Assembly: GCA_021160725.1 (NCBI GenBank)
Contig: JAGHCA010000044.1
Coordinates: forward strand, 1 to 51,549
Reading direction: 5' to 3'
From: Dehalococcoidia bacterium
GTDB lineage: Bacteria; Chloroflexota; Dehalococcoidia; GIF9; AB-539-J10
Length of the DNA stretch: 51,549 bases
The position numbers were made by a program, and so were the translations under genes. Shown in pieces: positions 20,173 to 51,137 of the stretch (the stretch's first letter is position 1; the number at the start of each line of letters is the position of its first letter). The notes beneath the pieces are model-generated. The model was not told the origin of the DNA and ran no database searches. It saw only the letters and a program-made list of their open reading frames with translations.

Positions 20173-20188
20173 TAGCAGGGGAGCCAAA

Positions 20189-23100: not shown

Positions 23101-23554
23101 GAGCCTTTTTACCATAGGCCAAAGAGGAGACGGCTTCTTCTTGGAAACCCATCCTAAGCTTGCTCCAGTAAACACGCCAACAGATGGAGTTTTCATTGCT
23201 GGGTGCTGCGAAGCACCAAGAGACGTCCCTGATACTGTGGCGCAGGCTTCGGCAGCAGCATCCAAGGCTTTGTCATTGATAAGTAGAGGCAAGGTAACCA
23301 CTGAAGCAGCTGTGTCGTATGTGGATGAATCTATTTGCCATGGATGTGGCCGCTGCGAGGAAATCTGTACTTTTCATGCCCCCTCGATTATCAGAACGGA
23401 TGGACGCTTGGTTTCTAGCATAAACGAAGCTCTCTGTAAGGGATGTGGAGCATGCGCTGTTGTGTGTCCTACAGGGGCAGCACAAATCAAGCACTTCAAT
23501 ATGCAGGAAATAGAGGGTCTGGTCGACGGCTTGCTGGAGGTGCACCGTGGCTGA
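20189..23554 (+). CDS. HdrA-type flavoprotein with inserted GltD/NfnB-like NAD(P)H-flavin module
   Basis: 1121 aa from ATG 20189. The HdrA N-domain (VYVCWCGLNIAG), FAD motif VVGGGIAGIQAAL, DCSECILTPKM, CVGSRD..YCSRVCCMY and the C-terminal 2x[4Fe-4S] are collinear with the paralogue at 29946. Between them sits a GltD-like block (CPAGVNAQGY..GRVCTHPCELEC, VIGSGPAGLACA, VVGGGNAAIDAAR..VYRRS). Confidence 0.85.
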   Translation: MEEVKIGVYVCWCGLNIAGTVDSEEVARYAGTLPHVAVARDYKYMCSDPGQDLIKNDIKRLGINRVVVASCSPRLHEPTFRKACRDAGLNPYLYEHANIREHCSWPHATDKNRATEKAKDLVRAAVRRVYYQEPLEIKEVPVNPNVLVVGGGIAGIQAALDIADGEKKVYMVERDASIGGHMIQLDRTFPTLDCSECILTPKMTDTGHHPNIELMTNSEVEEVSGYIGNFNVRIRKKPRYVDVDKCNSCGECAKVCPVEVPDEFEMGLSMRKAAYLPLPQAVPAAFAIDKRGTAPCRIACPAGVNAQGYIALISQGKFKEALELVRRAMPFAGVLGRVCTHPCELECERGKFDEPVSIRALKRFIADYELKTEREKVVPIETTKDSKVAVIGSGPAGLACAYDLIREGYAVTVFESLPRAGGLLRYGIPEYRLPKEVLDNDISYIQELGVEIKTKSPVEDLAEVFNQGYAAIFIASGAQGSQKMGIPGEETSGVIHALDFLRMVNAGVDIKLGNKVVVVGGGNAAIDAARASLRLGAREVTVVYRRSRDEMPAISSEVEEAEHEGIKIHFLATPTKILSRDGQLSAIECITMKLGEPDASGRRRPVAVKGTEFTMNVDNVIIAIGQTVDKTALPKELNYTSWGTLEVDPVTLQTHIAGVFAGGDVVSGPADVVVAVAAGKEAAISIDRYLRGVSLTEERQVTPKRVENVSKERAQLKARASTPLLKLDERKGSFAEVELSFDEKTAIEEAKRCLNCGVCSECLECVKVCEQGAINHEMQDEFVEVEVGSMILATGYQQFDPSVIPQYGYKKFDNVLTGLEFERITCAGGPTQGRIQLKDGREPESVAIVHCVGSRDQNYHEYCSRVCCMYGLKYAELIKEFTKAEVYEFYIDMRCFGEAFEEFYKRVSEMGVNFIRGKVANITDRVMGEEERGKLIVTAEDTLLGKMIRVPVDMVILCAALEARSDAADVASLFTIGQRGDGFFLETHPKLAPVNTPTDGVFIAGCCEAPRDVPDTVAQASAAASKALSLISRGKVTTEAAVSYVDESICHGCGRCEEICTFHAPSIIRTDGRLVSSINEALCKGCGACAVVCPTGAAQIKHFNMQEIEGLVDGLLEVHRG
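21062..22440 (+). other. GltD/NfnB-like insertion within the HdrA hybrid
   Basis: Boundaries come from aligning the protein by eye with the uninterrupted paralogue (29946..31934). Collinearity is lost after ..AIDKRG and resumes around ..EEAKRCLNCGVC. Confidence 0.7.
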
Positions 23555-35988: not shown

Positions 35989-37425
35989 CTACCTTATAAT
36001 CTCTTTTATTATTTCACCGTCAGGTGACACGACCTGAATGTTGAAAGGCATTTGACCTAAGGCATGTGTTGAGCAGGATAGACACGGGTCATAGCAGCGG
36101 ATAGCCACTTCAACCCGGTTGAGTATGCCTTCGGTTATTTTGTTGTTCTTTATGTGTGTTTTGGCTACCTCATATACTGCTTTGTTTATAGCAGCGTTAT
36201 TATTGCCTGTGGCTACTATGAGGTTGACTTTTTTGATTTTGCCGGTGTCGTCTACCCAGTAGTGGTGGAATAGAGTGCCCCTCGGTGCTTCGAGCACGCC
36301 AATACCCTGCTCGTTGTATTTGTTGGAAGTGACTATAAGGTCAGTCGAACAGATATCCTTATCCTCCAGCAACTGCTGGATCTTTTCGATGGAATAAAGC
36401 AGTTCTATGAGACGGGCGTAATGATAGTATAATGAACCTTCCACTATGCCGTTATTACCCAGTTTCTTGAAGTTCTTGAGTTCAGCATTGGCTAGTGGAG
36501 TGGATATTCCCTGGCTGACGTTGAGTCGGGCAAGCGGTCCCACCCGATAAGTACCCTTAGGGTAGCCCATCTTCTTGTAAAATGGAAACTTGAGATAAGA
36601 CCAATCCTCCACGTATTCGCTGATGATATCGAGGTAATTGGATGGATTGAACTGGTCTTCGAGGTTCTTTCCTTTCTGGTCAATTAACCGCAATTTGCCA
36701 TCGTAGAGTTCCAGATTGTTGTTTTCATCCACCAGCCCGAGATAGCCTGTGGGAAAACTGGCGCAGGTGCACACAAACTCATTATCTTGTTCATAGTAAT
36801 GCTTAATTACACTTATAGCAGTCTGCGCATCAGCGATAGCCCACCCAATTTGCTTCAATAAATGGTCTCTGTCGGCAGTGGATAGAGCTGTGTTCATGCC
36901 GCCAGGGACAGCGCCGTTAGGATGGATTTTCTTGCCACCTAGCTTTTGAATTACTGTCTGACCAAAGCTGCGAAGCTTGATACCTTTAACAGCGATGTCA
37001 GGATTCTCAGCAATCAGCCCAATTATATTTCTCCTTGCCGGTTCAGCATCCATGCCGAGAAGTAAATCTGGGCTGGCAAGGTGGAAGAAATGGAGGGCAT
37101 GGGATTGGAGGACCTGCCCCATATGCATTAATTCGCGCAATAGTTTAGCTGGGCGGGTCAGCTCAACTCCCAAAATCTCATCGCAGGCTTTGGCTGCGCC
37201 CAAGTGGTGGCTCACCGGGCAGATGCCACAAATTCTGGGTGTGATTGCCGGCATCTCCCAGAAAACTCTGCCTTCACAGAACTTCTCAAAGCCTCGAAAC
37301 TGTGTTACATGAAATTTAGCATCAGCTACATTCCCTGAATCATCCAGTTGTATCGTTACCTTGCCATGTCCTTCAAGCCGGCTAACGGGGTTTATTTCGA
37401 TAGTTTTGCTAACTTTAGTAGCCAT
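35989..37425 (-). CDS. hoxH: [NiFe] hydrogenase large subunit, group 3 (HoxH/HydL-like)
   Basis: 478 aa. N-terminal Ni-binding motif RICGICPVSHH and C-terminal DPCLSCSTH, followed by a 24-aa extension. Confidence 0.9.
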   Translation of the reverse strand: MATKVSKTIEINPVSRLEGHGKVTIQLDDSGNVADAKFHVTQFRGFEKFCEGRVFWEMPAITPRICGICPVSHHLGAAKACDEILGVELTRPAKLLRELMHMGQVLQSHALHFFHLASPDLLLGMDAEPARRNIIGLIAENPDIAVKGIKLRSFGQTVIQKLGGKKIHPNGAVPGGMNTALSTADRDHLLKQIGWAIADAQTAISVIKHYYEQDNEFVCTCASFPTGYLGLVDENNNLELYDGKLRLIDQKGKNLEDQFNPSNYLDIISEYVEDWSYLKFPFYKKMGYPKGTYRVGPLARLNVSQGISTPLANAELKNFKKLGNNGIVEGSLYYHYARLIELLYSIEKIQQLLEDKDICSTDLIVTSNKYNEQGIGVLEAPRGTLFHHYWVDDTGKIKKVNLIVATGNNNAAINKAVYEVAKTHIKNNKITEGILNRVEVAIRCYDPCLSCSTHALGQMPFNIQVVSPDGEIIKEIIR

Positions 37426-37439
37426 GTTTTCACCTCTTT

Positions 37440-37976
37440 CTAATCGAAGCGCATCATATCGCTGGGCAGAACTGGTATTCTGCCTGCCAGCAACTCTTTT
37501 AACGCATATAAGATAGCTCCAGCTTCTGGTGGACAGCCTGGCACATAACAGTCTACCTTTACCACGTGATTTGCTGGTTTTACCTGGTCTAGGAGTGCTG
37601 GCACACCAGGCGGGCAGGGTATTTTGCCTTTGTAGGTACTTTCAGTCTCGATATATCCTCGCCTGAGAACCTCTTCTTTATCGAAAGTGTTGCGCATAGC
37701 ACACACACCACCGAAACAGGCACAATCCCCCCAAGCCATAAGGATTTTGCAGTGAGCCCTGAGTTCCTTGAGCACCTCTTCCTCTTCAGTATTGCCGACA
37801 GAGCCTTCCACAATGCCGACATCTACCTGGGGGAAGTCCTTTATGTCTGTTATAGGAGTTCTAGTGAATTCGACCTTATCGGCTAGCTCGATTATCGCCT
37901 CATCAATATCAAGGAATGACATATGACAGCCAGCACAAGCTTCCAACCAGATTGTAGCTACCTTGACCTTTGTCAT
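37440..37976 (-). CDS. hoxY: [NiFe] hydrogenase small subunit (HoxY/HydS-like, Nqo6/NuoB fold)
   Basis: 178 aa. Carries ACAGCHMSF..GDCACFGG..GCPP. Confidence 0.85.
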   Translation of the reverse strand: MTKVKVATIWLEACAGCHMSFLDIDEAIIELADKVEFTRTPITDIKDFPQVDVGIVEGSVGNTEEEEVLKELRAHCKILMAWGDCACFGGVCAMRNTFDKEEVLRRGYIETESTYKGKIPCPPGVPALLDQVKPANHVVKVDCYVPGCPPEAGAILYALKELLAGRIPVLPSDMMRFD

Positions 37977-38001
37977 GTTAGAAACTCCTTCTTTTCAATT
38001 G

Positions 38002-39993
38002 CTATTTCTTCATCTGTTGCGAAATTTCACGCAATATCTCTGCATCTGCCTTGATGTCATCAGATGATTTGACGAGGGGCGAAGTCAATTTGGCTATACC
38101 GTCCAGTGTGGTATATTCTTCCCCTACCTCTGTCCAGATTGGCGATGGTAACACGACGTCGGCTTTCGATGTTGCTGATGAGAGATAACTTGATTGAATA
38201 ACTATGAATTCTAATCCTGTGCTAAGGTTTGGTAATTCTGATGCGTCAACATAGTCATCAGACAGAAGTAAGTATAAAGCCTTTATGTTGTTGCTCGTCA
38301 GGTTCTTTATGATTGATTGCGATGAATTGGCTATTCCTATATCCCAGGCGCCACGGCTATTTCCCTTGGGTTTTAGAGAGATGATTTGTGGTCTCTCTTT
38401 ATCTTGACTGCTGACGATGGTTGCCAAATTGAGGAGAGATGTTATCAGCCCGGGATTCTTGTGTTGCAGAACGCCTTCGCCGTAGACTATGATGTTGTGC
38501 TTAGCCTTGCTGAGCATATCTGCAGCCTCAAGAAGATCATCGCTATCTATCCCAGCTCGCTTACTATTTTGCTTTACATTGATATCCTTGAGGGATGCTG
38601 CTACTTCCTTTGTCCGGGCAGAGTCTTTCTTAGTGCTCTTCTCTATGACAGCTTTGGATAGGACATTCACTGCTAGTTGCTCAGTGCCTTCCTTTGGTTT
38701 TAGCCACAGCGTAGCATGGTAAGGGAAGGCATTTTGCGCCGGGTCGATAATGATAAGCTTTGCCTTGTTCCCTCTTACTGCTCTGGCAATATAAGAACCA
38801 GCCACAGGATGGCTTCCAAGGGGATTGGCTCCTACCACGATTATGCAATCAGCCTTGAGTATCTCTTCTAGCGAGGTTTCGATATCCAAACCTCCCTGAG
38901 CTCGAGGACCGTTTATGCCCTTGATAATGGTTCTGTAGGTATCCCCATCGAGAGTGTCGATTAAGTCACTGCCGATTGTACCGGCTATGAGTTCTTTGAA
39001 GGCCTTGAGGGAGTTGGTACTGGCCTGGCTTGATGCTATGCCAGCTATACCGTTACTGCCATACTGTGCTTTCAATCGAGCAAGTTTATTGGCTACCGTG
39101 TCTATGGCTTTAGATAGTGGCTGTGGCTCGAGCTTACCGCGACCATTTCTTACCAGTGCTGACTTGACACGTTCGTCTTTTCTGGACAACAGAGCAAAAC
39201 GTCCTTTGTCACAAAGTATGCCGCGCTTGCCAGTAATGTCAGGGCTGTCAATTCTCACGAGCCTGTTATCCTTGACTAGCGCTTCAATCTCGCAGCCAAT
39301 CCCACATATTGGGCATATGGTGTTTACCTTTTGGCATTCTTGGGGTTTTCCCTTGTAGGCGCTGTTCTTGGAGAATATGGCACCTGTGGGGCAGGCTTGA
39401 AAACAAGCTCCGCAGGAAATGCAGGATGATGTTCCTAAAGGTTGATTGAGGTCGGCGATAACCATGTCTTTCCAACCGCGATGGCCAAAGTCCAGTGCAT
39501 GAACGCCCACAATTTCATCGCAAGTCCTGATGCATCTGCCACACAAAATACAGCGATTATGGTCAATAACTAGGTAATCGTTTACTGAGTCTACAGGTAA
39601 CGCTGGCCATGAATATGGATAGCGCACATTGTCCATCTGGTACTCATAAGCAAGGCTCTGTAGTTCACAATCGCCGCTGGCCACGCACTGAGCGCACAGG
39701 TGGTTGCGTTCGGTAAACATCAATTCCAGAATCAACCGGCGATATTTCTCCAGTTTTTCATTGTGTGTCTGTACTACCAACCCATCTCGTGCCGGATAGG
39801 TGCATGCAGGCACAGGGCGCCTTTCTTTTTCAATATCAACCACACACATGCGGCAGGCGCCGACATCAGTTAGCCCTTTTAAGTGGCACAAGGTTGGGAT
39901 GTGTATGTTGTTAGCTTCACATACCTCAAGAACAGTATCTCCCTCCTTGCCTTTCACCTGCTTGCCATTGACTGTAAGCGTTATTTCTTTCAT
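38002..39993 (-). CDS. NuoG/HoxU/HydA-like Fe-S subunit with truncated molybdopterin-oxidoreductase-like domain
   Basis: 663 aa. N-terminal [2Fe-2S] (CHL..GACRMCVV) and several 4Fe-4S motifs (CILCGRCIRTC, CISCGACFQACP). MopB-type Fe4S4 motif CPICGIGCEIEA..GILCDKGRF, followed by ~400 aa of molybdopterin-like fold. Confidence 0.85.
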   Translation of the reverse strand: MKEITLTVNGKQVKGKEGDTVLEVCEANNIHIPTLCHLKGLTDVGACRMCVVDIEKERRPVPACTYPARDGLVVQTHNEKLEKYRRLILELMFTERNHLCAQCVASGDCELQSLAYEYQMDNVRYPYSWPALPVDSVNDYLVIDHNRCILCGRCIRTCDEIVGVHALDFGHRGWKDMVIADLNQPLGTSSCISCGACFQACPTGAIFSKNSAYKGKPQECQKVNTICPICGIGCEIEALVKDNRLVRIDSPDITGKRGILCDKGRFALLSRKDERVKSALVRNGRGKLEPQPLSKAIDTVANKLARLKAQYGSNGIAGIASSQASTNSLKAFKELIAGTIGSDLIDTLDGDTYRTIIKGINGPRAQGGLDIETSLEEILKADCIIVVGANPLGSHPVAGSYIARAVRGNKAKLIIIDPAQNAFPYHATLWLKPKEGTEQLAVNVLSKAVIEKSTKKDSARTKEVAASLKDINVKQNSKRAGIDSDDLLEAADMLSKAKHNIIVYGEGVLQHKNPGLITSLLNLATIVSSQDKERPQIISLKPKGNSRGAWDIGIANSSQSIIKNLTSNNIKALYLLLSDDYVDASELPNLSTGLEFIVIQSSYLSSATSKADVVLPSPIWTEVGEEYTTLDGIAKLTSPLVKSSDDIKADAEILREISQQMKK

Positions 39994-39995
39994 GT

Positions 39996-41430
39996 CTATT
40001 CTCCTGCTTCAAGGTCACATCTTAGACATCGGCTGGCTTCCTCTATTGCCTCCTTCGCGCTGTAAGGTAAGACTGTCTCCTCAAAGGAAGTTATCCTATC
40101 AGCAGCGGGAATCTCGCCAATCTTTAGTCGATGCTTTTCTTCAAGCTGGTCTTCGGTCGGCATCACGGAAGGCACATCTATCGGTTCGTAGCCGTTGCGT
40201 TCGACTAATGGTGTGAGTTCTTCTCCTTGAAGATATCGCCTTATTGAGCAAGCTGCCCTTTGTCCTGCAGCTATTGCTTCGATTACTGTGGCTGCGCCCG
40301 TATGTACATCTCCGCCGGCGAAAACTCCTTTACGTCCGGTAGCTAGAGTTCTCGGGTCGGCTACTATCGTTCCCCGTTTTGTTACGCTTATCCCATCTCT
40401 GCTAAGGTACGTAGTATCAGGTCTCTGTCCTGTAGCTTCGATAACCGTATCGAAATTCACAGTGTATTCGGAACCCTTGATCTGGTAAGGGGTTTTTCTG
40501 CCACTCTTGTCAAACTCCCTTGGTTCCATGCGGACGCACTCGACCCCATCGACTTTGCCGTTCTTGCCCATGATCTTGACTGGCGCCGTTAGACAGTGAA
40601 TAAGTATGCCTTCCTCTTCAGCGGCCTCGATCTCTTCAACTATTGCCGGCATATCTCTCTTTTCTCTTCGGTAGAGGATATGCACTTCTTTGGCGCCCTT
40701 TCTTAGGGCTACTCTGGCTGTATCGATGGCTGAGTTCCCACCCCCAACGACGGCCACTTTTTGTCCTACCTTGATATCTTTCCCCAGGTTTACTTCCCTC
40801 AAGAAATCAATGGCGTCAAAGACTCCATTCAGGTCTTCACCAGGGATGCCCATCTTGTCACCTTTATGTGCACCGGTAGCGATAAATACTGCCTGGTAAC
40901 CGTCTTTCAGCAGAGATTCGACATCGTTTACAGGTGAGTTAAGTCTTATATCAACCCCGAGCTTTTTTACTGTTTCGATCTCTCTGTTGAGAACGTTCTT
41001 GGGGAGGCGGTATTCAGGTATACCTACCGCCAGCATCCCACCAGCCACAGGCAGGGCTTCAAACACGGTAACCTGGAAACCTTCTCTGGCAAGATCCCAG
41101 GCTGCTGATAAGCCCGCCGGACCAGCGCCAATAATTGCTATCTTTTCTTTCCTTTTCTCTTTGATTTGAGGAATGTATTCAAGTCCGTGGTTAAATGCAT
41201 AGTCAGCAGCGAACCTCTTCAGATGCTTGATTGCAATAGGGTCTTCAATCTGAGCTCTTCGACATTTGCCTTCGCAAGGGTGGTGGCACACGCGTCCGAC
41301 ACTCAATGGTAATGGTAGCCGTTGCATGATGAGCCTGTAAGCTTTCTCAAAGTTACCTGCTTTTATGAGAGCAACATATCCCGGGACGTCTAGTCCAACA
41401 GGACAGGTATGCTGACATGGTGCCCTGAAG
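39996..41430 (-). other. GltD/NfnB-like module of the NuoF fusion
   Basis: Starts near ..PLFRAPCQHTCPVG (about 41430) and runs to the stop codon. Confidence 0.7.
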
Positions 41431-43085
41431 AGAGGTTGACAGACTACAGCCGGGCATTTTTTGTCTATGATATGCGCTTCGTATTCCTCTCTGAAATGCC
41501 GAAGTGTGGTTAGCACCGGGTTAGGGGCTGTTTGCCCCAGACCACAGATAGAGGCAGAACCGACCATCTCAGCCAGCTCTTCTAGTGTAGCGAGATCTTC
41601 CATCGTGCCTTCGCCGTTTGTGATCCTGGTCAATAGTTCAAGCATCTTGGGTATCCCGGCACGGCATGGAGTACATTTGCCACAAGACTCGTCCCTGGTA
41701 AATTGGAGAAAGAACTTGGCGACGTCAACCATACAGCTATCCTCATCCATTACCACTAGTCCACCCGAGCCCATGATAGCCCCCAGCGCAGTAACAGCCT
41801 CATAGTCTACTGGGGTATTTAAGTACTCGATAGGGATAACGCCGCCCGATGGACCTCCTATCTGCACTGCTTTGTACTTCTTCCCATTCGGTATACCGCC
41901 GCCGATATCAAATACAATCTTTCCTAAACTTGTACCCAAAGGGACTTCAACCAGACCTGTGTTATGCACCTTGCCAACCAGACATAAAGTTTTTGTGCCT
42001 TTGCTGGTTGTGGTACCGACGCTACTGAACCATTCAGCCCCTTTCCAGATTATCTGTGGGACGTTCGACCAGGTCTCCACGTTGTTGAGCGTGGTGGGCT
42101 TGTCGAAAAGTCCTTTGTTAGCCGGGAAGGGTGGTCGCTGGCGAGGATTTCCTCGTTTTCCTTCGATTGATATCAGAAGGGCTGTCTCTTCGCCGCAGAC
42201 AAAGGCACCGGCTCCCGGGAATATATCCAGGTCGAATTCAAAGCCAGTTCCCAGAATATTTTTCCCCAGCAGGCCGTATTCTCGAGCCTGGTTTATAGCG
42301 TGACTTAATGTTTCGATAGCAAGGGGATATTCAGCGCGGATGTATGCATAACCTTGGCGCACATTGCCTATGGCATAGGCTCCTATGGCCATACCCTCGA
42401 CTATTGAATGTGGGTTGCCTTCGAGGACAGCGCGGTTCATATAGGCGCCGGGGTCACCTTCGTCACCGTTGCAGACAACATATTTTTCATCGCCCTGAGC
42501 ATTGCGGACAAACGTCCACTTTGTAGCTGTTGGGAAGCCTGCTCCTCCTCGACCTCTCAAGCCAGCTTTTCCTATTTCTGCGATAACATCCTCCGGCTTC
42601 ATCTGGGTCAGTGCTTTAGCCAGCGCTTGATAGCCGTCTCGGGCGATGTATTCTTCGATGTTCATCGGGTCGAGGTCCTGGTTATGCATTACCCGTATTT
42701 CTTGCAGCTTGAGCAAGGGGTCATCGGGATTTAGTTTCCATTCGTCTACTATCTTACCTTTAATGAGGTGCTGCTCGATGACCTTGGGAACTTTATCCTC
42801 GGAGAGATCGTAATAGATAGTCTTGCCTTTTATGGGATGAACAATTGTAACTACTGGTTCTCGGTCGCATAAGCCAATGCAGGCTGCCTTTAATACGACG
42901 ACTTCTGTTAACTTACGGCTTTCGATCTCTCGTTGAAAAGCCGCAAGGACTTTGTTTGCGCCTGAAGATATTCCGCATGTTCCAAGATGAACTTTTACCT
43001 GGGTCTTCTTTTCTCGTTGCGACAGTTTCTTGTTAATTTGGTCTACAAGCTTGTTTAATTCTTCTACCGACGCAAGTCGTTTCAT
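39996..43085 (-). CDS. NuoF/HoxF/HydB-like FMN-NADH subunit fused to a C-terminal GltD/NfnB-like module
   Basis: 1029 aa. N-terminal thioredoxin-like [2Fe-2S] domain (GTCGISSGA..CIGLCDREP). NuoF core (GLRGRGGAGFPTATKW, ESCGKCTPCR). GltD block (CPVGLDVPGY..GRVCHHPCEGKC, IIGAGPAGLSAA, VVGGGNSAIDTAR..LYRRE). Ends ..EEASRCLRCDLEAGE. Confidence 0.85.
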   Translation of the reverse strand: MKRLASVEELNKLVDQINKKLSQREKKTQVKVHLGTCGISSGANKVLAAFQREIESRKLTEVVVLKAACIGLCDREPVVTIVHPIKGKTIYYDLSEDKVPKVIEQHLIKGKIVDEWKLNPDDPLLKLQEIRVMHNQDLDPMNIEEYIARDGYQALAKALTQMKPEDVIAEIGKAGLRGRGGAGFPTATKWTFVRNAQGDEKYVVCNGDEGDPGAYMNRAVLEGNPHSIVEGMAIGAYAIGNVRQGYAYIRAEYPLAIETLSHAINQAREYGLLGKNILGTGFEFDLDIFPGAGAFVCGEETALLISIEGKRGNPRQRPPFPANKGLFDKPTTLNNVETWSNVPQIIWKGAEWFSSVGTTTSKGTKTLCLVGKVHNTGLVEVPLGTSLGKIVFDIGGGIPNGKKYKAVQIGGPSGGVIPIEYLNTPVDYEAVTALGAIMGSGGLVVMDEDSCMVDVAKFFLQFTRDESCGKCTPCRAGIPKMLELLTRITNGEGTMEDLATLEELAEMVGSASICGLGQTAPNPVLTTLRHFREEYEAHIIDKKCPAVVCQPLFRAPCQHTCPVGLDVPGYVALIKAGNFEKAYRLIMQRLPLPLSVGRVCHHPCEGKCRRAQIEDPIAIKHLKRFAADYAFNHGLEYIPQIKEKRKEKIAIIGAGPAGLSAAWDLAREGFQVTVFEALPVAGGMLAVGIPEYRLPKNVLNREIETVKKLGVDIRLNSPVNDVESLLKDGYQAVFIATGAHKGDKMGIPGEDLNGVFDAIDFLREVNLGKDIKVGQKVAVVGGGNSAIDTARVALRKGAKEVHILYRREKRDMPAIVEEIEAAEEEGILIHCLTAPVKIMGKNGKVDGVECVRMEPREFDKSGRKTPYQIKGSEYTVNFDTVIEATGQRPDTTYLSRDGISVTKRGTIVADPRTLATGRKGVFAGGDVHTGAATVIEAIAAGQRAACSIRRYLQGEELTPLVERNGYEPIDVPSVMPTEDQLEEKHRLKIGEIPAADRITSFEETVLPYSAKEAIEEASRCLRCDLEAGE

Positions 43086-43094
43086 TGCACTCTC

Positions 43095-43625
43095 CTATCG
43101 ATATGAACTCAGGATATCCTTTAGTCTGCTGGGCTTCACTCTCCTATGTATATCTTCATTGATGGCTAACACAGGAGATAAACCGCAACAGCCAATGCAC
43201 CTTACTGTTTGTAGCGAGAATCTGCCATCTGCTGTCGTCCCCCCAGACTCAAGACCGAGCTCTTTCTTCAGAGTATCAATTATTTTCTGCCCTCCCTTGA
43301 CGTAGCAACTGGTACCCAAACACACCTGAATGACATATTTACCCTTTGGCACCATCGAGAAAAAAGAATAGAAGCTCGTTATTCCATACATCTCGCTTAG
43401 AGGGATTCTCATTTCCCTGGCTATTATTTCCAGAACCTCACGTGGTAGATAGCCAATGAGCCCCTGCGCCTTTTGTAATACCCTGATTGGCGCTCCTGCT
43501 TGTCCCTCAGTAGCTTCAATTATTTTCTTTATTTGCTGCTGTGTCTTGCTATCTATAGCTTTACTTGCTTCCTCTTTGATTGGTTTGGTTTCGACTGCTT
43601 GCTTCAAGGACACCTCCTGAAACAT
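43095..43625 (-). CDS. hoxE: NuoE/HoxE/HydC-like [2Fe-2S] subunit
   Basis: 176 aa. Carries VCLGTSCYVKGG..RCIGCCGLSP (the C-x4-C...C-x3-C NuoE pattern). Confidence 0.85.
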   Translation of the reverse strand: MFQEVSLKQAVETKPIKEEASKAIDSKTQQQIKKIIEATEGQAGAPIRVLQKAQGLIGYLPREVLEIIAREMRIPLSEMYGITSFYSFFSMVPKGKYVIQVCLGTSCYVKGGQKIIDTLKKELGLESGGTTADGRFSLQTVRCIGCCGLSPVLAINEDIHRRVKPSRLKDILSSYR

Positions 43626-43984
43626 GACTGATTTGTGGTCATGAAATAGATTCGTAGCGATGCACTAGATGGCATCCCTCTGGATTTTAGATCTAGTTTC
43701 CAAGGCATCGGTCTCAAAGGGCGAATTCACATACTCAGTTGAGCTAAACGTGGCTTGTGAAGCTACATAAGTGTAGCATCTAACTTTATCTGGTGCAACT
43801 AGGTGTATTGCTCTCTTAACCTAAAATTGTTATAGTGGTTTTGCTTATCCGTAGAAGCTTATGTGCCACAAGTCAGTGAGGGTCTACTATATTGCATCCT
43901 TGGAAAATTGAGGCAATGAATCGTTGTTAAACTGGTATCCGGTGTATAACTTTTTTAAGCTTAATCTGTGCAAGGAGGTTAAAT

Positions 43985-45802
43985 ATGTGGAAAACTGAAG
44001 CCACGGGAGTGGCACGTGTGGAGATGGCAGTAAGACAGTGTCTCCCCCCCTGCGAGATCAAATGCCCGATAAATGAGGATATCCAGCGGACAAACGTGCT
44101 CATTTCCCTGCTCCCTGAAGATATGGATTCGGCAAGAGAAGGTATGATCCAGATTAGCGATTATCTCTATGAAAGAAATCCCTTCTTCAACATTTGTGGT
44201 TACATCTGCGGAATTTGTGAGCTAGAGTGTAACTACCTCAAAAAGGGTGGTGCAATTAAGAGGAGGCTCCTCAAGAGATTCTTGTCGGATGTTTATACTG
44301 AACATCTTAGGGAACTGGGAAAACTTGAGATAGTCAAAAATAAAGAAAAGGTGGCTGTTATAGGTGGTGGGCCGGGCGGGCTGATGTGTGCCTACCATTT
44401 AAGCAAGAAAGGATATAACGTAACGGTAATCGAAGCTTCTGACAGGCTCGGCGGAGCACTGTGGCTGGTTCCGGATTATCGCTTGCCCAAGGATGTTCTG
44501 CAGACTACGGTTGAAAACCTCGTAAGAATAGCTGGCATAGACGTCCGGTATAACAACAAGCTGGGAGAGGGAGATTTGACACTAGAGCAGCTGAAGAACG
44601 ATGGCTATAAGGCAATCTTCCTCGCAACCGGGCTGCCATTTCCCAGAGTGCTGACTTTTGAGGGAAAATCTTTAGAGGGGCAGGACCTGGCCGGTGTTAT
44701 GTATGGTCACACTTATCTATATGAAGTTAGTTACAATAATATCGCCCCAGATTATTTCAAAGGCAAGAGAGTCATTGTCACGGGAGGGGGGAATGTAGCC
44801 TTTGACGTGGCCAGGTCAGCTAGGAGGCACGGCGCAGAGGTCACTGTCGTAGCCCTTGAACGTGAAGATAAAGACCATAGAGATGGTATACCTGCAGACG
44901 AGCAAGAGATCCGTGGGGCCTGGGAGGAGGGCATAAAAATAATCTATAGCCGTGGTGTGAGAAAAATCATCGGAGAGAGTGGCAGATTTAAGGGAATCAA
45001 CTGCCCGACTTGCGTGAGCGTCTTTGATGAAGAGGGGTTCAATCCAAAATTTGATTGTGCGGACTGTATAGACCTGGAGGGCGATATACTCATAATCACA
45101 GTAGGGCAGGCTCCTGATAAATCACTCTTTCAGAAGGCAGGCCTTCTGGATGAGCGTGGTAGATTTAATGTTGACCATCTAACGTTGCAGAATGTGAACG
45201 AGCCTTGGGTTTTTATAGGCGGTGATGTTAGAAGGGTCGGCTTTATGGTTGAAGCTATGGGTGAAGGGCTTGTGGCTGCTGAATCAATTGACAGATATCT
45301 ACGGGGAGTGGATATGAGGGAGGGGCGAAGAAGAGATTATGAGGGATATCCAATTCCTCTGAGGAAGAATTATAAGAGTGAGCCCGAGGTGCCCTGGATG
45401 CCACCAGAGAACAGAATGCACTTCAAGATTTTTGAGCAGGGATTTACACTCAAAGAGGCGATAGAAGAAGCGCGAAGATGTGTTACTTGTGGGCCATGTC
45501 TGTCTTGTAAAGCCTGCATCTCGATTGGTTTTCAGAAGTCGTTGAGCCCAGTTGAAGTGGATGAAACAAGGTGTAGTGGTTGTGGGCATTGTGTTTATGT
45601 CTGCAATTATTATTCTGCTCATTTGATTAGCTCTGGTGAAAAAATTATATCCGCAACGGATATGTTCAGATGTAAATCCTGCGGCATGTGTGTTGCGGCT
45701 TGCCCATCTGAAGCAAGAAGAATGGTCGATGATGACACAGTGGAAAAGATAGATGAGTTGTACTCGTCTTTGATACAGCGTCCAGACCAAAATATTGTTT
45801 AG
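43985..45802 (+). CDS. GltD-like NAD(P)H flavoprotein with C-terminal poly-ferredoxin
   Basis: 605 aa. Carries CEIKCPINEDI..NICGYICGICELEC, VIGGGPGGLMCA..DYRLPKDV, VTGGGNVAFDVAR, EEARRCVTCGPCLSCKAC, CSGCGHCVYVC and CKSCGMCVAACP. Confidence 0.8.
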   Translation: MWKTEATGVARVEMAVRQCLPPCEIKCPINEDIQRTNVLISLLPEDMDSAREGMIQISDYLYERNPFFNICGYICGICELECNYLKKGGAIKRRLLKRFLSDVYTEHLRELGKLEIVKNKEKVAVIGGGPGGLMCAYHLSKKGYNVTVIEASDRLGGALWLVPDYRLPKDVLQTTVENLVRIAGIDVRYNNKLGEGDLTLEQLKNDGYKAIFLATGLPFPRVLTFEGKSLEGQDLAGVMYGHTYLYEVSYNNIAPDYFKGKRVIVTGGGNVAFDVARSARRHGAEVTVVALEREDKDHRDGIPADEQEIRGAWEEGIKIIYSRGVRKIIGESGRFKGINCPTCVSVFDEEGFNPKFDCADCIDLEGDILIITVGQAPDKSLFQKAGLLDERGRFNVDHLTLQNVNEPWVFIGGDVRRVGFMVEAMGEGLVAAESIDRYLRGVDMREGRRRDYEGYPIPLRKNYKSEPEVPWMPPENRMHFKIFEQGFTLKEAIEEARRCVTCGPCLSCKACISIGFQKSLSPVEVDETRCSGCGHCVYVCNYYSAHLISSGEKIISATDMFRCKSCGMCVAACPSEARRMVDDDTVEKIDELYSSLIQRPDQNIV

Positions 45803-45812
45803 GAGGATTGCA

Positions 45813-46259
45813 TTGAGTGAATATAAACCTAAATTAGTGTGTTTTTCCTGCAAATTTAGCTGGGGTTATCTGACAAACGAAGATATGCTCTCAAGCAAGA
45901 TAGATAACTGGCTTCCACTAATTTGCACGGGGAAAATTGATGCTACTCATATGCTGGAGGCATTCAGAGCGGGGGCTGATGGAATTTTGATACTTGGTTG
46001 TCCGGAAGGGGAGTGTCATTACCAAGATGGCAACTACGAGGCAAAAAAGAGAGTATGTTTAGTTCGCAGGCTGTTAGAGTCCGTTGGTATAGAGAAGGAA
46101 AGGGTTAGGATAGAACTATCCAGAGATCCCGAAGGCAACAGAATCCCCGAGTTGGTGAAAGAGATGAGACAAGAATTGGTAAAACTAGGTCCGGCAAAAA
46201 GGGGTCTGGTGACGGAAAAGAAATCCAAAGAGACCACTAAAGTTAGAGGAGGGAAATGA
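45813..46259 (+). CDS. mvhD: divergent MvhD-like subunit
   Basis: About 148 aa from TTG 45813, 6 nt after AGGAGG. Carries LVCFSCKFSWGY, ICTG and GCPEGECHY. The first Cys motif differs from the FACNWC form of the other copies. Confidence 0.75.
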   Translation: MSEYKPKLVCFSCKFSWGYLTNEDMLSSKIDNWLPLICTGKIDATHMLEAFRAGADGILILGCPEGECHYQDGNYEAKKRVCLVRRLLESVGIEKERVRIELSRDPEGNRIPELVKEMRQELVKLGPAKRGLVTEKKSKETTKVRGGK

Positions 46260-46260
46260 G

Positions 46261-47229
46261 ATGGCCAAGCCGAAGATTGCGATTTGCTGGTTGGGGTCGT
46301 GTGGTGGTTGTGACGAAACGGTAGTGGATATAAATGAAGTACTACTTCGGGTAGCAGCTGCGGTTGATATAGTCCTTTGGCCGGTGGCGATGGACTTCAA
46401 GTATGATAGCCTAAAAAAGATTAAAAATGGGGGAATTGTGTTGGGTATAGTCAATGGGCATGTCAGAAACTCTGAGCAAGAAGAGATAGCCAAGATACTA
46501 AGGGAGAAATCACAGCTAATTCTTGCCTTCGGTGCCTGTGCTTGCTTTGGAGGAACACCTGGATTGGCTAATCTTGCTACGAAGGAGGACATCTTCAACT
46601 GGGTGTACCGTGATGCCCCAACTGTAGTTAACCCAAATAGTAACTACCCCCAGACAATCTCCAATGTCAATGGGAAAGAACTTACTCTGCCTGAATTCTA
46701 TAACCGTGTTTATGCGTTGAATGACATCATCGATGTCGATTATTACCTGCCTGGATGTCCCCCACCTCCATATTTGGTGTTACATGCCGTGAGCGCGGCC
46801 ATCGAAAATAAATTCCCCCCCAAAGGCTCAACCTTAGCACCTCATAGAGCCCTGTGTGATAGCTGTAAACGCAATAGATCGAAGCCGGATAAAATATCAA
46901 TAAGGGAAATCAAGAGAATTCATGAGGTAGAGGCAGACCCCGATATTTGTTTTCTAGCTCAAGGAATAGTATGCCTGGGTCCAGCTACTCGTGATGGCTG
47001 TGGGGAATCCTGCATGAATATCAATATGCCGTGTCGGGGATGCTTTGGCCCTGTGGAGGGAGTCGAAGATTCCGGCGCTAAATTTATCTCTACGATGGCA
47101 TCAATTCTGGACGCAGAGAGTGATGAAGACATAGCAAGAATTGTAAGCCAGTTTGTTGACCCTGTGGGATATCTGTATCGATTTTTACTCCCCGCTTCGA
47201 TACTACAGAAAAAGCAGATTGTGAAATAG
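46261..47229 (+). CDS. mvhG: [NiFe] hydrogenase small subunit, group 3c (MvhG-like)
   Basis: 322 aa. Carries WLGSCGGCDE, GACACFGG and GCPPPP, plus C-terminal Cys clusters (CDSC, CLGPATRDGCGESC, CRGCFGP). Confidence 0.85.
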   Translation: MAKPKIAICWLGSCGGCDETVVDINEVLLRVAAAVDIVLWPVAMDFKYDSLKKIKNGGIVLGIVNGHVRNSEQEEIAKILREKSQLILAFGACACFGGTPGLANLATKEDIFNWVYRDAPTVVNPNSNYPQTISNVNGKELTLPEFYNRVYALNDIIDVDYYLPGCPPPPYLVLHAVSAAIENKFPPKGSTLAPHRALCDSCKRNRSKPDKISIREIKRIHEVEADPDICFLAQGIVCLGPATRDGCGESCMNINMPCRGCFGPVEGVEDSGAKFISTMASILDAESDEDIARIVSQFVDPVGYLYRFLLPASILQKKQIVK

Positions 47230-47252
47230 ATTAGATAGGAAAGAGGTGTACT

Positions 47253-48716
47253 GTGAGCAAAAGGATAACCATAAACCCAATAACCAGGCTTGAGGGACAT
47301 GGGAAAATCGAGATTTTTTTGGACGATAAGGGTGAAGTAGAAGATGCTTATTGGCAGGTAGTGGAGCTTAGAGGATTTGAAACTTTTTGTCTGGGTAGGC
47401 CTATAGAAGAGTTGCCGCGGATTATGCCAAATATCTGTGGCGTTTGTCCAACTCCACATAATATGGCGTCGGTGAAAGCGCTGGATGACCTGTACAGGGT
47501 AGAGCCAACTCCTCCTGCCAAGTTGATAAGGCAGCTCCATTACAATGCTTTCATAGTAGAAGACCATCTGTTGCACTTCTATATACTTTCCTCGCCTGAC
47601 TTTGTCCTTGGGCCAACTAGTGACCCGTCAGAACGGAATATTGTCGGTGTGGTGCAGAAGGTTGGATTGGAGATCGGTGGCAAGGTCATAGAGGCAAGGA
47701 AAAGATGCCGGGAGATAATCCGGCACATTGCCAGCAAGCCTGCCCATCCGGAGGGTGGCTTGCCTGGTGGAGTTTCCGTGGTAATTATCGAGGAGGACAG
47801 AAAATGGATACGGGAAACTGCCGATTTCTGTGTCGAATTTTGCCAGTTTTCTCTGGAGTTATTCAAACAGGTTGTCTTGGACAACAAAGAATATTTGAAT
47901 ATTGTCCTGAATGATGCTTACAAACTGAACACCTATTATATGGGACAGGTTGATGAGAATAATCGCTTGAATTTTTACGAAGGTAAGTGCAGGGTGGTTA
48001 ATCCAAAAGGTGAGGAGTATGCCTTGTTTGATTGCCACGATTATGTTGATTACATAGGAGAGTGGGTTGAACCATGGACATATGTTAGGTTAACTCACTT
48101 GCGACAGATAGGTTGGAAAGGCTTGAACGAGGGTGAAGCGACATCATTGTACCGTGTGGGGCCACTGGCAAGATTAAACGCAGCTGACAATATGTTAACC
48201 CCCCTCGCTCAGAGAGAATATGAGACTATGTTTGATATACTGGGAGGCAAACCTGCTCACCATACTCTCGCTTATCATTGGGCAAGGTTAATTGAAGCTT
48301 TGCAGGCTGCTGAGCATATGCAGAGAATTGCTAATGATCCTTTGCTGACCAGCAAGGATATACGCAATATGGACCTTAAGCTGGACAAGGTTGGCGTTGG
48401 TTGTGTTGAGGCATCGCGGGGAACGTTAATCCACCATTATGAAGCTGATACTGAAGGAAAAGCTACAAAGGTGAATCTTATTGTAGCAACTCAGCACAAT
48501 GCTGCCCCCATATGTTTATCTGTGAAAAAGGCGGCCAGGGAATTTGTCAAGGGTCCCCAGGTGAAGGAAGGTTTCCTCAATATGGTGGAGATGGCTTTCC
48601 GAGCATATGATCCGTGTCTGGCTTGTGCGACTCATGCCCTGCCCGGTCAGATGCCGCTTACAGTGAATATAAGAGAGCATAACGGAGGCTTGATACGGAC
48701 CTTGCAGAGACCATAA
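47253..48716 (+). CDS. mvhA: [NiFe] hydrogenase large subunit, group 3c (MvhA-like)
   Basis: 487 aa. Carries NICGVCPTPHN and the C-terminal DPCLACATH plus an extension. GTG start after AAGAGG. Confidence 0.9.
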   Translation: MSKRITINPITRLEGHGKIEIFLDDKGEVEDAYWQVVELRGFETFCLGRPIEELPRIMPNICGVCPTPHNMASVKALDDLYRVEPTPPAKLIRQLHYNAFIVEDHLLHFYILSSPDFVLGPTSDPSERNIVGVVQKVGLEIGGKVIEARKRCREIIRHIASKPAHPEGGLPGGVSVVIIEEDRKWIRETADFCVEFCQFSLELFKQVVLDNKEYLNIVLNDAYKLNTYYMGQVDENNRLNFYEGKCRVVNPKGEEYALFDCHDYVDYIGEWVEPWTYVRLTHLRQIGWKGLNEGEATSLYRVGPLARLNAADNMLTPLAQREYETMFDILGGKPAHHTLAYHWARLIEALQAAEHMQRIANDPLLTSKDIRNMDLKLDKVGVGCVEASRGTLIHHYEADTEGKATKVNLIVATQHNAAPICLSVKKAAREFVKGPQVKEGFLNMVEMAFRAYDPCLACATHALPGQMPLTVNIREHNGGLIRTLQRP

Positions 48717-48860: not shown

Positions 48861-50105
48861 ATGGTGAGTCTGACGCAGAGATACTACCGCAGTCTTTACG
48901 AAATAGCAGCTGTGATTAATTCAGCTGGTACTCCTAAGAACGTGCTCAATACAATTGTAGAAACTGTTGCCAAGGCAATGGATGTTAAAGGGTGCTCATT
49001 AATGCTCCTAACCCCGGACCGGAAAGATTTGCTTCAGACAGCAGCATATGGATTAAGCGACTGGTATGTCAACAAGGGCCAGTTGTCTGCCGACAAGAGT
49101 ATTCCCCAGGTGTTGAAAGGGAAGCCCGTTGCCGTATTGAACGCAACCGAGGATGAGAGAGTACAGTATAGGGAAGAGGCGAAACGGGAGGGGATTGCAT
49201 CTATGCTTTCGGTACCAGTGATATTCAAGAAAGATGTAGTGGGGGTGATAAGGGTATACACTGCAAATCAGCATGACTTCGCAGCTGACGAGATGTATTT
49301 CGTGCAGGCGGTTGCAAATCTAGGTGCTATTGCCTTGGAGAATGCCAGGAGGCTAGAACAGTGTTTTACTGAAGTAGACAAGCTGGAAGAGGAGAGACGA
49401 CAGTTTGTTCGCTTTCTCAGTGTTGTCGCTCATGATCTCCAATCACCGCTGGTTGCTATTCAGAGCTTATTATCCTATATGGTGGATGGATACACCGGAG
49501 AGATTACTGAAGGGCAAAAGGATCTGATGCAGAGGGGTATCAGGAGGGTTGATGAGCTTCTAACTTTGCTTACCGATCTGCTGGATATACCTCGTATCAG
49601 AGCTGGCCAGCTTGAGCGCGAGAAAGTAGAACTTTCTTTGCATGAGGTAGTTAAACAAGTGGTGGAAGAGCTCAGTAGTGTTGCTAAGAAGAAGGGAATA
49701 GTATTGAAGGTTGAACTACCTGAAAGTTTACCTAAAGTTTACGCATCCAAGCGACGTCTGCAACAAGTGTTGAATAACCTGATAAGTAATGCTATTAATT
49801 ATACACGTGAAGGCATGGTACTTGTAAGGGTGAAGGAATATGATAACGAGGTAGCGATTGAAACAATGGACACTGGCGTCGGCATACTACCTAGTGAGCT
49901 GCCCCGAGTGTTTGACGAGTTTTTTAGAGGGAGCAATGTGGGAACTAAAGGAACTGGATTGGGGTTATCAATATCGAAGCGAATAATTGAGGCTCATGGA
50001 GGGAAAATCTGGGTTGAGAGTCCCTGTCCCGAAACTGGTAAGGGAAGTAAATTTACTTTTACTTTGCCACAAATACGGACGCTCGAGACAGTATCTAAGA
50101 CATAA
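48861..50105 (+). CDS. GAF-domain sensor histidine kinase (cytoplasmic)
   Basis: 414 aa. N-terminal GAF-like ~160 aa, H-box [10 protein letters not shown], and HATPase_c ([24 protein letters not shown]). No hydrophobic segments. Confidence 0.85.
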
Positions 50106-50153
50106 TATGCGCATGTAAGGTCCCAGAACGAATAACTAAGGAGGCGATTAAAT

Positions 50154-50537
50154 ATGAAACAAAGGCCGAAGATTCTACTCGTTGATGATGATGTTGATCT
50201 TGTGAAAGTTATGAGAGGAGCTCTGGAAAGTAAGGCCTACGAGGTGGTTGTGGCCTACAATGGACAGGAAGGTTTGGAAAAGGCAAGAAAAGAGAAACCC
50301 GATCTAGTCGTTCTAGATATTTTGATGCCAGAGGCGAATGGTTTTACATTTGCCGACCAATTCCGCAAGGACCCAGTGCTTGCCAAGATTCCTGTCTTGG
50401 CACTGACCAGCTTCTCAGAGTCACTGGGGCAACCTTTCCCATTTGAGGTGTCTGAATATATTGTCAAGCCCATCAAACCAAAAGACTTGGTGGCCAAGGT
50501 AGAGGAATCTCTTAAAAAGGCTGGGATATCGCAATAG
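50154..50537 (+). CDS. single-domain response regulator (CheY-like REC)
   Basis: 127 aa. Carries KILLVDDD..VVLDILMPEANG..LTS..KP. Confidence 0.85.
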   Translation: MKQRPKILLVDDDVDLVKVMRGALESKAYEVVVAYNGQEGLEKARKEKPDLVVLDILMPEANGFTFADQFRKDPVLAKIPVLALTSFSESLGQPFPFEVSEYIVKPIKPKDLVAKVEESLKKAGISQ

Positions 50538-50693: not shown

Positions 50694-51137
50694 ATGGGCA
50701 ATTTTGAACCAAAAATAATAGCTTTTTGCTGTAATTGGTGCTCTTATGCCGGTGCCGACCTGGCGGGCACTTCCAGAATCCAATACCATCCCGCTATAAG
50801 GATAATCAGGGTTATGTGTAGTGGCAGGGTAAGCCCTCTCTTTGTCCTTAAAGCGATTAGCATCGGTGCTGATGGCGTGTTGGTCCTTGGTTGTCATCCC
50901 GGTGATTGCCACTACATTGAAGGAAATTACAAGACGCTACGTCGTATCCCGTTACTCAAGAGGATTTTGAAGCAGTTTGGGATAGAGGAAGAAAGAGTTC
51001 GGCTGGAGTGGGTTTCCGCGTCTGAGGGAGCAAGATTTGCTGAGGTGGCTAATAGTTTTACTCAATCCATAAAAAACCTTGGGCCAAATACATTGGGCCA
51101 TTTAAAGCAGAATTCTAAGGAGGCAAAGCATGGCTAA
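50694..51137 (+). CDS. mvhD: MvhD (fourth copy in the window)
   Basis: 147 aa. Carries FCCNWCSYAGADLAG, MCSG and GCHPGDCHY. Confidence 0.9.
   Translation: MGNFEPKIIAFCCNWCSYAGADLAGTSRIQYHPAIRIIRVMCSGRVSPLFVLKAISIGADGVLVLGCHPGDCHYIEGNYKTLRRIPLLKRILKQFGIEEERVRLEWVSASEGARFAEVANSFTQSIKNLGPNTLGHLKQNSKEAKHG

Follow-up and report, generated by a model that had tools for sequence, protein, structure and literature searches.

To what are electrons delivered by an Mvh-type [NiFe]-hydrogenase whose operon begins with a flavoprotein gene instead of hdrA? This question is raised by positions 43985-48716 of contig JAGHCA010000044.1 from a Dehalococcoidia bacterium. The contig was analysed as one entire 51.5-kb stretch (51,549 nucleotides (nt), hereafter the window); the host genome is 1.45 Mb and 96%-complete, and its close relatives are all labelled as metagenome-assembled genomes (MAGs) of Dehalococcoidia or Chloroflexota. 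Four open reading frames (ORFs) of 605, 148, 322, and 487 amino acids (aa) lie here in the same direction. This gene set, the cassette, probably encodes a soluble heterotetrameric [NiFe]-hydrogenase that would act as a non-bifurcating H2:NAD(H) oxidoreductase (NAD, nicotinamide adenine dinucleotide), with an electron path leading from the NiFe site through MvhG, MvhD, and the ferredoxin domain of the flavoprotein to its flavin adenine dinucleotide (FAD). An earlier note on this DNA had described an operon-like layout of four genes with a 605-aa leading gene, and both the coordinates and the gene families check out as follows.

43985-45802, plus strand: gltD-Fd, 605-aa iron-sulfur flavoprotein (Pfam, NCBIfam, PDB sequence matches, AlphaFold2 (AF2) model and Foldseek)
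45813-46259, plus strand: mvhD, divergent subtype, 148 aa, TTG start (Pfam FlpD, 6.5e-30; 5odc_D, 5e-23; orthologue alignment)
46261-47229, plus strand: mvhG, long Mvh-type small subunit, 322 aa (5odc_E, 4e-67; best NCBIfam match VhuG)
47253-48716, plus strand: mvhA-like [NiFe] large subunit, 487 aa, GTG start (Pfam NiFeSe_Hases; NCBIfam VhuA, 371 bits)

Organization of the cassette

The genes are separated by gaps of 10, 1, and 23 nt. In Pfam, the first product carries Fer4_20, Pyr_redox_2, and a C-terminal Fer4 dicluster, the second is FlpD/MvhD, the third Oxidored_q6, and the fourth NiFeSe_Hases. All four genes have a Shine-Dalgarno sequence: AGGAGG at 43973-43978 upstream of the gltD-Fd ATG at 43985, a second AGGAGG at 45801-45806, GAGGAGG ahead of mvhG, and AAGAGGTG ahead of the mvhA GTG. 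The TTG start of mvhD at 45813, which had been noted to follow a perfect AGGAGG, is confirmed in the sequence, the AGGAGG ending 6 nt ahead of it. An alternative in-frame TTG is present at 45795 in the ORF listing; the start at 45813 is supported since relatives have TTG or ATG at the same codon. With long reading frames, strong family matches, and conserved synteny, chance is therefore not an issue for the cassette.

Conservation, gene orders, and natural fusions

Homologues of the flavoprotein were found at 102 distinct loci by three genome scans and one phylum-wide search, in the following arrangements.

63 loci: complete order gltD-Fd, mvhD (divergent type), mvhG, mvhA
5 loci: the same order interrupted by a contig end
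15 loci: second order mvhG-mvhA-gltD-Fd, nifU-like, hycI, canonical-type mvhD, often with hyp genes
13 loci: paralogues (51-55% identity), most of which have no hydrogenase next to them, together with L143, where a copy of 59% identity lies in two pieces upstream of mvhDGA
6 loci: contig too short for the arrangement to be called

The first order is present in all homologues of at least 56% identity on contigs that are long enough, and the identities of the four cassette proteins drop in parallel across loci. The claim that a GltD-like gene stands in HdrA's place in an Mvh operon is thus borne out by the neighbourhood census as a conserved four-gene unit. Cassette loci occur in Chloroflexota (41), Thermodesulfobacteriota (14), Acidobacteriota, and a few others; the Thermodesulfobacteriota members are labelled Syntrophales, Syntrophobacterales, Desulfobacteraceae, Desulfomonilaceae, Geobacteraceae, and Desulfuromonadaceae. 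All cassette records are MAGs, and no isolate with the cassette was found among the best 80 of each of two alignment-based scans of species-representative genomes. Natural GltD-Fd::MvhD fusions with a C-terminal MvhD (about 726 aa) are found in P0177, P0215, and P0231, and at L066:2173-4359. Strict co-inheritance, a second gene order, and fusions make a strong comparative case that the flavoprotein and MvhDGA are parts of one enzyme; the second order and the fusions also support physical contact between them. The cassette is real, widespread, uncharacterised, and assembled from known modules; no description of it was found by full-text search of the literature.

Several loci depart from the common pattern. 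In other Dehalococcoidia families, L057:5327-16292 (G168) and L056 (G260) have mvhG, mvhA, gltD-Fd, nifU-like, hycI, and canonical-type mvhD, followed by genes for a 386-aa polyferredoxin::MvhD fusion, a MetV-like protein, hypF, and hypD. Ahead of the fusion gene of L066 lie nifU-like, hycI, and a short FlpD gene. Paralogues of about 740 aa with an N-terminal receiver domain and about 53% identity (P0170, P0179, P0183, P0207, P0211, P0219, P0235) form a further group, one of which, at L065:7001-9280 on a metagenome contig, lies directly behind hdrC-hdrB-hdrL with no hydrogenase nearby. At L058:8411-12743 (G388, in the genus of the window genome), a 53%-identical paralogue is followed by hypF with no hydrogenase structural genes adjoining, and no paralogue of this type was found in the window's own genome at E 1e-60 or better. 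In a long-read MAG (MFD03726.bin.2.26, L017/L087), tblastn finds gltD-Fd, mvhG, and mvhA each in two overlapping pieces, reflecting either assembly indels or a decaying cassette copy. A first-type cassette on a 5.4-kb contig in an archaeal MAG (L177, Halobacteriota archaeon MAG25_tar_biofilm) is due to either lateral transfer or a binning error.

The flavoprotein and its nucleotide site

GltD-Fd begins with an Fe-S domain of truncated GltD/NfnB type (C23, C27, C71, C75, C78, C82), followed by an FAD site (GGGPGG, residues 127-132), an NAD site (GGGNVA, 267-272), the linker EEARRC499xxC502xxC505xxC508xxC511, and a C-terminal 2x[4Fe-4S] HdrA-type ferredoxin domain (523-578). The three C-terminal cysteine strings that had been quoted for it are all located in the sequence, CVTCGPCLSCKAC at 499-511, CSGCGHCVYVC at 530-540, and CKSCGMCVAACP at 563-574. 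It is indeed the fifth GltD-like module, as had been stated, with Fer4_20 and Pyr_redox_2 found also in the ORFs at 20153, 25156, 34450, and 39996. The nearest solved relatives by sequence are NfnL of Pyrococcus NfnI (5jca_L, 5e-54) and the GltD-containing subunits of NfnABC/StnABC, among which the match to 9bov_A extends to residue 574. The AF2 model has a mean predicted local distance difference test score (pLDDT) of 77, and Foldseek ranks NfnA of NfnABC and StnC first, then NfnB, DPD, and GltD. By Pfam, 5jca_L, and Foldseek, the protein has the Fer4_20, FAD, and NAD(P) Rossmann domains of the NfnB/NfnL-GltD family; the YRR motif of that family is absent, and no NfnA/NfnS (PyrK-like) or GltB gene is adjacent, the neighbours being mvhD, mvhG, and mvhA. 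The PyrK-like gene of the window (33569) partners the NfnB-like gene at 34450.

The YRR motif of NfnB grips the 2'-phosphate of NADPH (the reduced 2'-phosphate form of NAD), and its loss accompanies NAD(H) use in the assayed DsrL-1 enzymes (PMC7596348). In an alignment of the window's five GltD modules, on which both the YRR and the cysteine comparisons are based, the four other modules retain YRR; GltD-Fd alone has A290-L291-E292 in this position together with a 4-residue acidic insertion. Glu292 and GGGNVAFD are invariant in 87 sequences and in 17 from other phyla, as are R277 and R281; the Rossmann motif for FAD does not vary either. An acidic residue ending beta-2 is the classical textbook signature of NAD(H) binding. 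Because GGGNVAFD and Glu292 are invariant and YRR is lost, GltD-Fd probably keeps a maintained NAD site of the NADH rather than the NADPH type. The suggestion of an NAD(P)H-linked hydrogenase in the earlier note therefore stands as the best reading, and is narrowed to NADH over NADPH by the replacement of YRR with A-L-E and its invariant Glu.

The remodelled pocket could also be taken to mean that the flavoprotein binds no pyridine nucleotide at all and serves as an Fe-S/flavin wire to ferredoxin, to a thiol/disulfide enzyme, or to a folate-linked enzyme. YRR is gone, the acidic insertion of four residues lies in a loop of low model confidence, and in L057 and L066 the cluster has MetV-like DUF5981 genes behind it. 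The first-type cassette, however, has no MetV neighbour, and the invariance of GGGNVAFD, R277, R281, and E292 over the 87 + 17 sequences from several phyla, with the NAD(H)-type acidic residue at the end of beta-2, makes this wire very unlikely.

Iron-sulfur motifs and the relation to HdrL

The first two cysteines of the canonical N-terminal motif are missing in GltD-Fd, HdrL, and the NuoF-GltD protein, and only in part in the HdrA-GltD protein at 25156; these inserted or fused GltD modules (39996-43085, 20153-23554, 25156-27915, and 43985-45802) bear an EEAxRCxxC motif after the flavin body instead. This motif (C499/C502 in GltD-Fd) probably supplies the two missing ligands of the distal cluster, an arrangement that, from the alignment, resembles a circular permutation. 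The NuoF-GltD protein (39996-43085) stops right after the EEAxRCxxC motif. GltD-Fd has an extra cysteine pair, CPxC, in its NAD-domain region (45002-45013, residues 340-343), where C343 is invariant and C340 is conserved in at least 90%; the pair is not present in the NfnB-type modules. The motif with C505, C508, and C511 is short of a fourth cysteine, and its cluster might be completed by the CPxC pair.

The GltD part and the linker share homology with the HdrL insert (37% identity; 41% in the linker motif), and the linker FTLKEAIEEARRCVTCGPCLSCKAC resembles the HdrL segment that follows its GltD insert. The ferredoxin domain (525-577) shares 45% identity with its C-terminal counterpart in the window's HdrA and 30% with the one in HdrL, and in NCBIfam it aligns to HdrA2 positions 572-637, right before the fused MvhD domain of HdrA2. 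GltD-Fd looks like HdrL without the bifurcating HdrA core, because its linker and ferredoxin domain resemble their HdrL/HdrA counterparts. HdrL, known from sulfate reducers and syntrophs and encoded in the window at 20153-23554, has the same truncated GltD module, EEAxRCxxCGxCxxCxxC linker, and C-terminal ferredoxin domain; it also has the HdrA flavoprotein core and a YRR motif of the NADPH type, whereas GltD-Fd has neither.

Since it was also proposed that the hydrogenase docks onto the Hdr-GltD hybrids, this homology has to be weighed as a possible sign of a flavoprotein adaptor that would feed electrons into the HdrL/Hdr-GltD complexes at 19-33.5 kb and thus into heterodisulfide-type bifurcation. 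Apart from the homology of the GltD part and linker with the HdrL insert, the receiver-fused paralogue behind hdrC-hdrB-hdrL in L065 and one related locus, L112, with hdr genes beside a paralogue are consistent with such docking. Module homology is no evidence of mutual binding, however, and Hdr genes are absent within 8 kb of the cassette at most loci of other lineages. The Hdr clusters of the window have canonical MvhD copies of their own (23547 and 31927), and from 50694 onward lies a second, canonical mvhD-mvhG operon that extends onto contig C90. The docking proposal is accordingly not upheld, and an adaptor of this kind is regarded as decidedly unlikely.

Comparison with related flavoproteins and the question of bifurcation

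The top structural matches of GltD-Fd, NfnA and StnC of NfnABC/StnABC (PDB codes: 9N5U, 9BOV, and 8OH5), likewise combine an FAD-bearing GltD module with further Fe-S clusters behind it, and the module is there a non-bifurcating entry wire for NAD(P)H. Unlike GltD-Fd, they sit in a NuoG-like frame with an N-terminal [2Fe-2S] cluster and a defunct molybdopterin domain; their nucleotide is NADPH, and their electrons go to a HydBC-type flavin mononucleotide (FMN) module instead of a hydrogenase. DsrL, the NAD(P)H:acceptor oxidoreductase of DsrAB, has an identical domain order including the linker of about 100 residues and the C-terminal 2x[4Fe-4S] domain, and the NADH-type DsrL-1 is also without YRR (PMC7596348). 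The partner of GltD-Fd is instead a hydrogenase, and its N-terminal domain lacks both first cysteine ligands. Although its domain order is that of DsrL, an assignment of GltD-Fd as DsrL was ruled out, as no match to dsrA was found in the 96%-complete genome.

Non-bifurcation is an assumption made by analogy with StnC/NfnA and DsrL, in which the module is a plain wire. Its counterpart is a bifurcating or confurcating hydrogenase in which the NfnB-type FAD would couple NAD(H), H2/H+ (through the ferredoxin domain and MvhD), and ferredoxin (through the N-terminal clusters). The module is homologous to NfnB/NfnL, whose FAD bifurcates (PMC10482914), and two separate Fe-S arms leave the flavin region of GltD-Fd. 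Moreover, the cassette is common in MAGs labelled Syntrophales, Syntrophobacterales, and Syntrophorhabdales, and on thermodynamic grounds NADH-driven H2 formation in syntrophs should need reduced ferredoxin unless H2 is very low. Against this, the same module in StnC/NfnA of the Bfu enzymes lost bifurcation, DsrL is described as a plain oxidoreductase despite the same architecture, and the cassette is without an NfnA/PyrK-like second flavin subunit. By sequence, the two Fe-S arms also look like one continuous chain, as the relocated RCxxC probably completes the distal GltD cluster. A bifurcating enzyme is thus thought unlikely. It would amount to a fourth wiring of soluble [NiFe]-hydrogenases, with an NfnB-type FAD as bifurcating centre instead of HdrA or a HydBC-type FMN, joining H2, NAD(H), and ferredoxin in syntrophs and Dehalococcoidia, an outcome that is doubtful to the same degree. 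In Dehalococcoidia, such a version might be switched by a receiver-domain protein, because receiver domains are fused to flavoprotein paralogues.

The connector and the small subunit

That the MvhD of this operon is the divergent copy, as the earlier note had it, is evident from LVCFSCKFSWGY in the place where the window's three other, canonical copies have F(C/A)CNWC(S/T)YA. Only positions 31-123 of the Pfam FlpD profile are matched, so that the N-terminus is divergent. In an alignment of 18 orthologues with canonical copies and PDB chains, the second cysteine of the canonical CNWC is Ser in 18 of 18 orthologues and is followed by a 5-residue deletion. Four of the five cysteines conserved in canonical MvhD are present (C13, C38, C63, and C68), and the MvhD domains fused to relatives of the flavoprotein retain the same four. 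These patterns support a distinct, apparently co-evolving subtype, presumed to be a [2Fe-2S] connector. MvhG matches 5odc_E over residues 5-314 with all 12 cysteines for three [4Fe-4S] clusters aligned, as in the MvhG-type small subunits of group 3c; the short one-cluster HydS/HoxY chains match only its first ~170-190 residues.

The large subunit and classification of the enzyme

In HydDB, group 3b is defined as NADP-coupled, 3c as heterodisulfide-reductase-linked, and 3d as NAD-coupled (PMC5037454). The large subunit of the cassette has RLEGHG (12-17), CGVCPTPH (62-69), and DPCLACATH (453-461), in keeping with the Ni-Fe binding motifs RxEGH, RxCGxCxxxH, and DPCxxCxxH. It ends in a C-terminal extension of 26 residues, which a maturation protease is predicted to cleave off; other parts of the genome encode three proteases of the HycI type. 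Its top NCBIfam match is VhuA with 371 bits against a cut-off of 800 bits, and its PDB scores are 365 bits for 7t2r_D (HydL of NiFe-HydABCSL), 352 for 5odc_F (MvhA), and 307 for 5xf9_D (HoxH).

A maximum-likelihood tree was constructed from 65 representatives at the 50% identity level, PDB references, and outgroups (3b-like Chloroflexota proteins and the genome's own group 1 enzyme; FrhA of group 3a was not included). The GltD-Fd-linked large subunits group together as one clade within a larger one of 21 rows (support 100/99), and methanogen MvhA/VhuA, the 3b clade, and the HoxH/HydL clade all fall outside these 21 rows. The last of the three (13 rows, support 100/98) contains the other large subunit of the window, at 35989. 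The backbone of the tree is weak, and joining the 21-row clade with methanogen MvhA was not rejected in the approximately unbiased (AU) test (p 0.17). The large subunit thus appears to be a separate deep lineage of group 3 in an enzyme that is Mvh-like in its subunit set. The group 3c assignment made earlier is therefore only a candidate one: the set of subunits is Mvh-like, the large subunit falls in its own clade outside methanogen MvhA/VhuA, and their joint clade is not rejected by the AU test. As far as gene context goes, the link to HdrABC is absent, there being no hdrA, hdrB, or hdrC in the cassette.

The hydrogenase half resembles that of MvhADG-HdrABC and VhuADGU-Hdr (3c; PDB codes: 5ODC, 9SW2, and 9SFI) in its group 3 motifs, three-cluster small subunit, and MvhD connector, and the partner protein likewise presents an HdrA-type C-terminal ferredoxin domain. 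In contrast to these systems, the cassette has neither the thioredoxin-reductase-like bifurcating core of HdrA nor HdrB/C, and hence no heterodisulfide site; its partner is a GltD/NfnB-type flavin module with an NAD site, its MvhD is one of the five canonical cysteines short, and its large subunit lies in a separate clade. With group 3d Hox (5XF9), NiFe-HydABCSL (7T2R), and the group 3b sulfhydrogenases, the proposed enzyme shares a reaction that joins H2 to a pyridine nucleotide (PMC5037454). In Hox and HydABCSL, a NuoF-type FMN diaphorase is combined with a short small subunit that has a single cluster, whereas the cassette has a GltD-type partner and a 322-aa small subunit with three clusters. 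Group 3b uses AsrAB/PyrK-like subunits, whereas the cassette has a GltD/NfnB-type FAD subunit with MvhD and a three-cluster small subunit, and no AsrA/AsrB-like partner genes. Its large subunit scores 138 bits with ShyA, compared with ~290 bits for true 3b-like Chloroflexota proteins, and is outside both the HoxH/HydL clade and the 3b rows, which form a separate clade with 100/100 support. Overall, it appears from the domains that the cassette is a pairing of a 3c hydrogenase half with a type of pyridine-nucleotide partner used by none of 3b, 3c, and 3d.

A proposed electron path

The working of the H2:NAD(H) oxidoreductase can be potentially described as follows. The MvhA-like large subunit would cleave H2 at its Ni-Fe site, and the electrons would pass through the three [4Fe-4S] clusters of MvhG to the [2Fe-2S] cluster of the divergent MvhD. 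MvhD would dock on the HdrA-type C-terminal ferredoxin domain of the flavoprotein as it does on HdrA in methanogens, an analogy with Mvh-HdrA to which the domain homology and the fusions lend support. From there, the electrons would move over the linker cluster or clusters and the two GltD-type [4Fe-4S] clusters to FAD, which would reduce NAD+, or the entire path may be reversed at low H2. At the low H2 pressures that prevail in anoxic sediments, the H2:NAD(H) reaction should be close to equilibrium and could thus run in either direction, and the presence of the cassette in MAGs of syntroph lineages would fit the disposal of NADH as H2.

Some observations speak against this reading. The dinucleotide motif GxGxxA, which some authors read as NADP-type (PMC12054007), gives GltD-Fd a weak NADP-type counter-signal, and the specificity signals are therefore mixed. 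AF2 confidence is low in segments 293-302 and 503-519, the NfnB type of FAD can bifurcate, which leaves non-bifurcation an assumption, and the window is full of Hdr-type complexes as possible additional partners.

Classifiers and annotations label Mvh-like large subunits as group 3c, heterodisulfide-reductase-linked, and bifurcating (PMC5037454), and genome surveys thus probably mislabel the cassette. If it is a true H2:NADH oxidoreductase, metabolic models of many uncultured Dehalococcoidia, syntrophic Thermodesulfobacteriota, and Acidobacteriota are wrong on how H2 is coupled to redox pools. It would then add to group 3 a third kind of diaphorase, with a GltD/NfnB-type FAD, beside the NuoF-type FMN of 3d and the PyrK/AsrB type of 3b. 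The cassette is also a clear case of modular evolution, in which HdrL appears to have been stripped of its bifurcating core with the docking domain for MvhD retained. In addition, a compact four-subunit enzyme could be of interest for H2-driven regeneration of NADH.

Putative promoters and candidate regulators

The divergent intergenic region at 43626-43984 (359 bp) separates the cassette from the neighbouring NiFe-Bfu-like operon. Phylogenetic footprinting, by alignment of 15 related intergenic regions, points to two putative back-to-back promoters of the sigma-70 type.

43808-43836, plus strand: putative sigma-70-type promoter of the gltD-Fd/mvhDGA operon, -35 TTGCTC (43808-43813), 17-nt spacer ending in TGT, -10 TATAGT (43831-43836)
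43770-43798, minus strand: putative sigma-70-type promoter of the divergent NiFe-Bfu-like operon, -35 TTGCAC (reverse complement of 43793-43798), 17-nt spacer, -10 TACACT (reverse complement of 43770-43775)

The plus-strand promoter is the most conserved block of the alignment, relatives having CTTGTTTC ... GGTATAAT, and the columns of the minus-strand promoter read TG-n-TATAAT and TTGCA in relatives. Both leaders are predicted to be ~140 nt long. Simple scans of the intergenic regions for sigma-70 consensus sequences and terminators gave nothing above shuffles, so that the promoters are seen only by footprinting, and no Rfam family was found in the leader. That no convincing -24/-12 element exists in 43626-43984 had been remarked before, and the scan agrees: TGGCAC-N5-TTGCW has no match there with one mismatch or fewer. 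The only site with two mismatches (43853-43868, minus strand) was rejected as a sigma-54 promoter, as it is without the -12 GC. Genes for a sigma-54-like protein and an enhancer-binding protein are nevertheless present in the window.

Two further genes lie behind the cassette.

48861-50105, plus strand: GAF-HisKA-HATPase kinase (Pfam)
50154-50537, plus strand: stand-alone receiver protein (Pfam)

This pair (48861-50537) is found behind the cassette in most Dehalococcoidia loci, down to ~54% identity, and not in other phyla, which makes it a candidate lineage-specific regulator of the cassette. The stand-alone receiver is only 26-30% identical to the receiver domains of the GltD-Fd paralogues, which is a hint and not orthology. 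Together, the receiver fusions and the kinase/receiver neighbours hint that phosphorylation may gate electron flow.

Other hydrogenases in the window

A HydABCSL-like (NiFe-Bfu-like) enzyme adjoins the cassette at 35989-43625. The corresponding region at L059:899-13497 (G364), compared with 35989-48716 of the window, shows that the NiFe-Bfu-like operon and the cassette are neighbours in related families with varying orientation: they diverge in the window but run in the same direction in G364, L079, and L080. Linkage of the two soluble hydrogenases therefore seems to be under selection.

A second Mvh operon with a canonical MvhD begins at 50694 and runs off the window end at 51549. Contig C90 (9-1107) bears the 3' end of its large-subunit gene, the product of which is 55% identical to the cassette MvhA, and a gene for a HycI protease. 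The Hdr clusters at 19-33.5 kb more probably work with this canonical copy.

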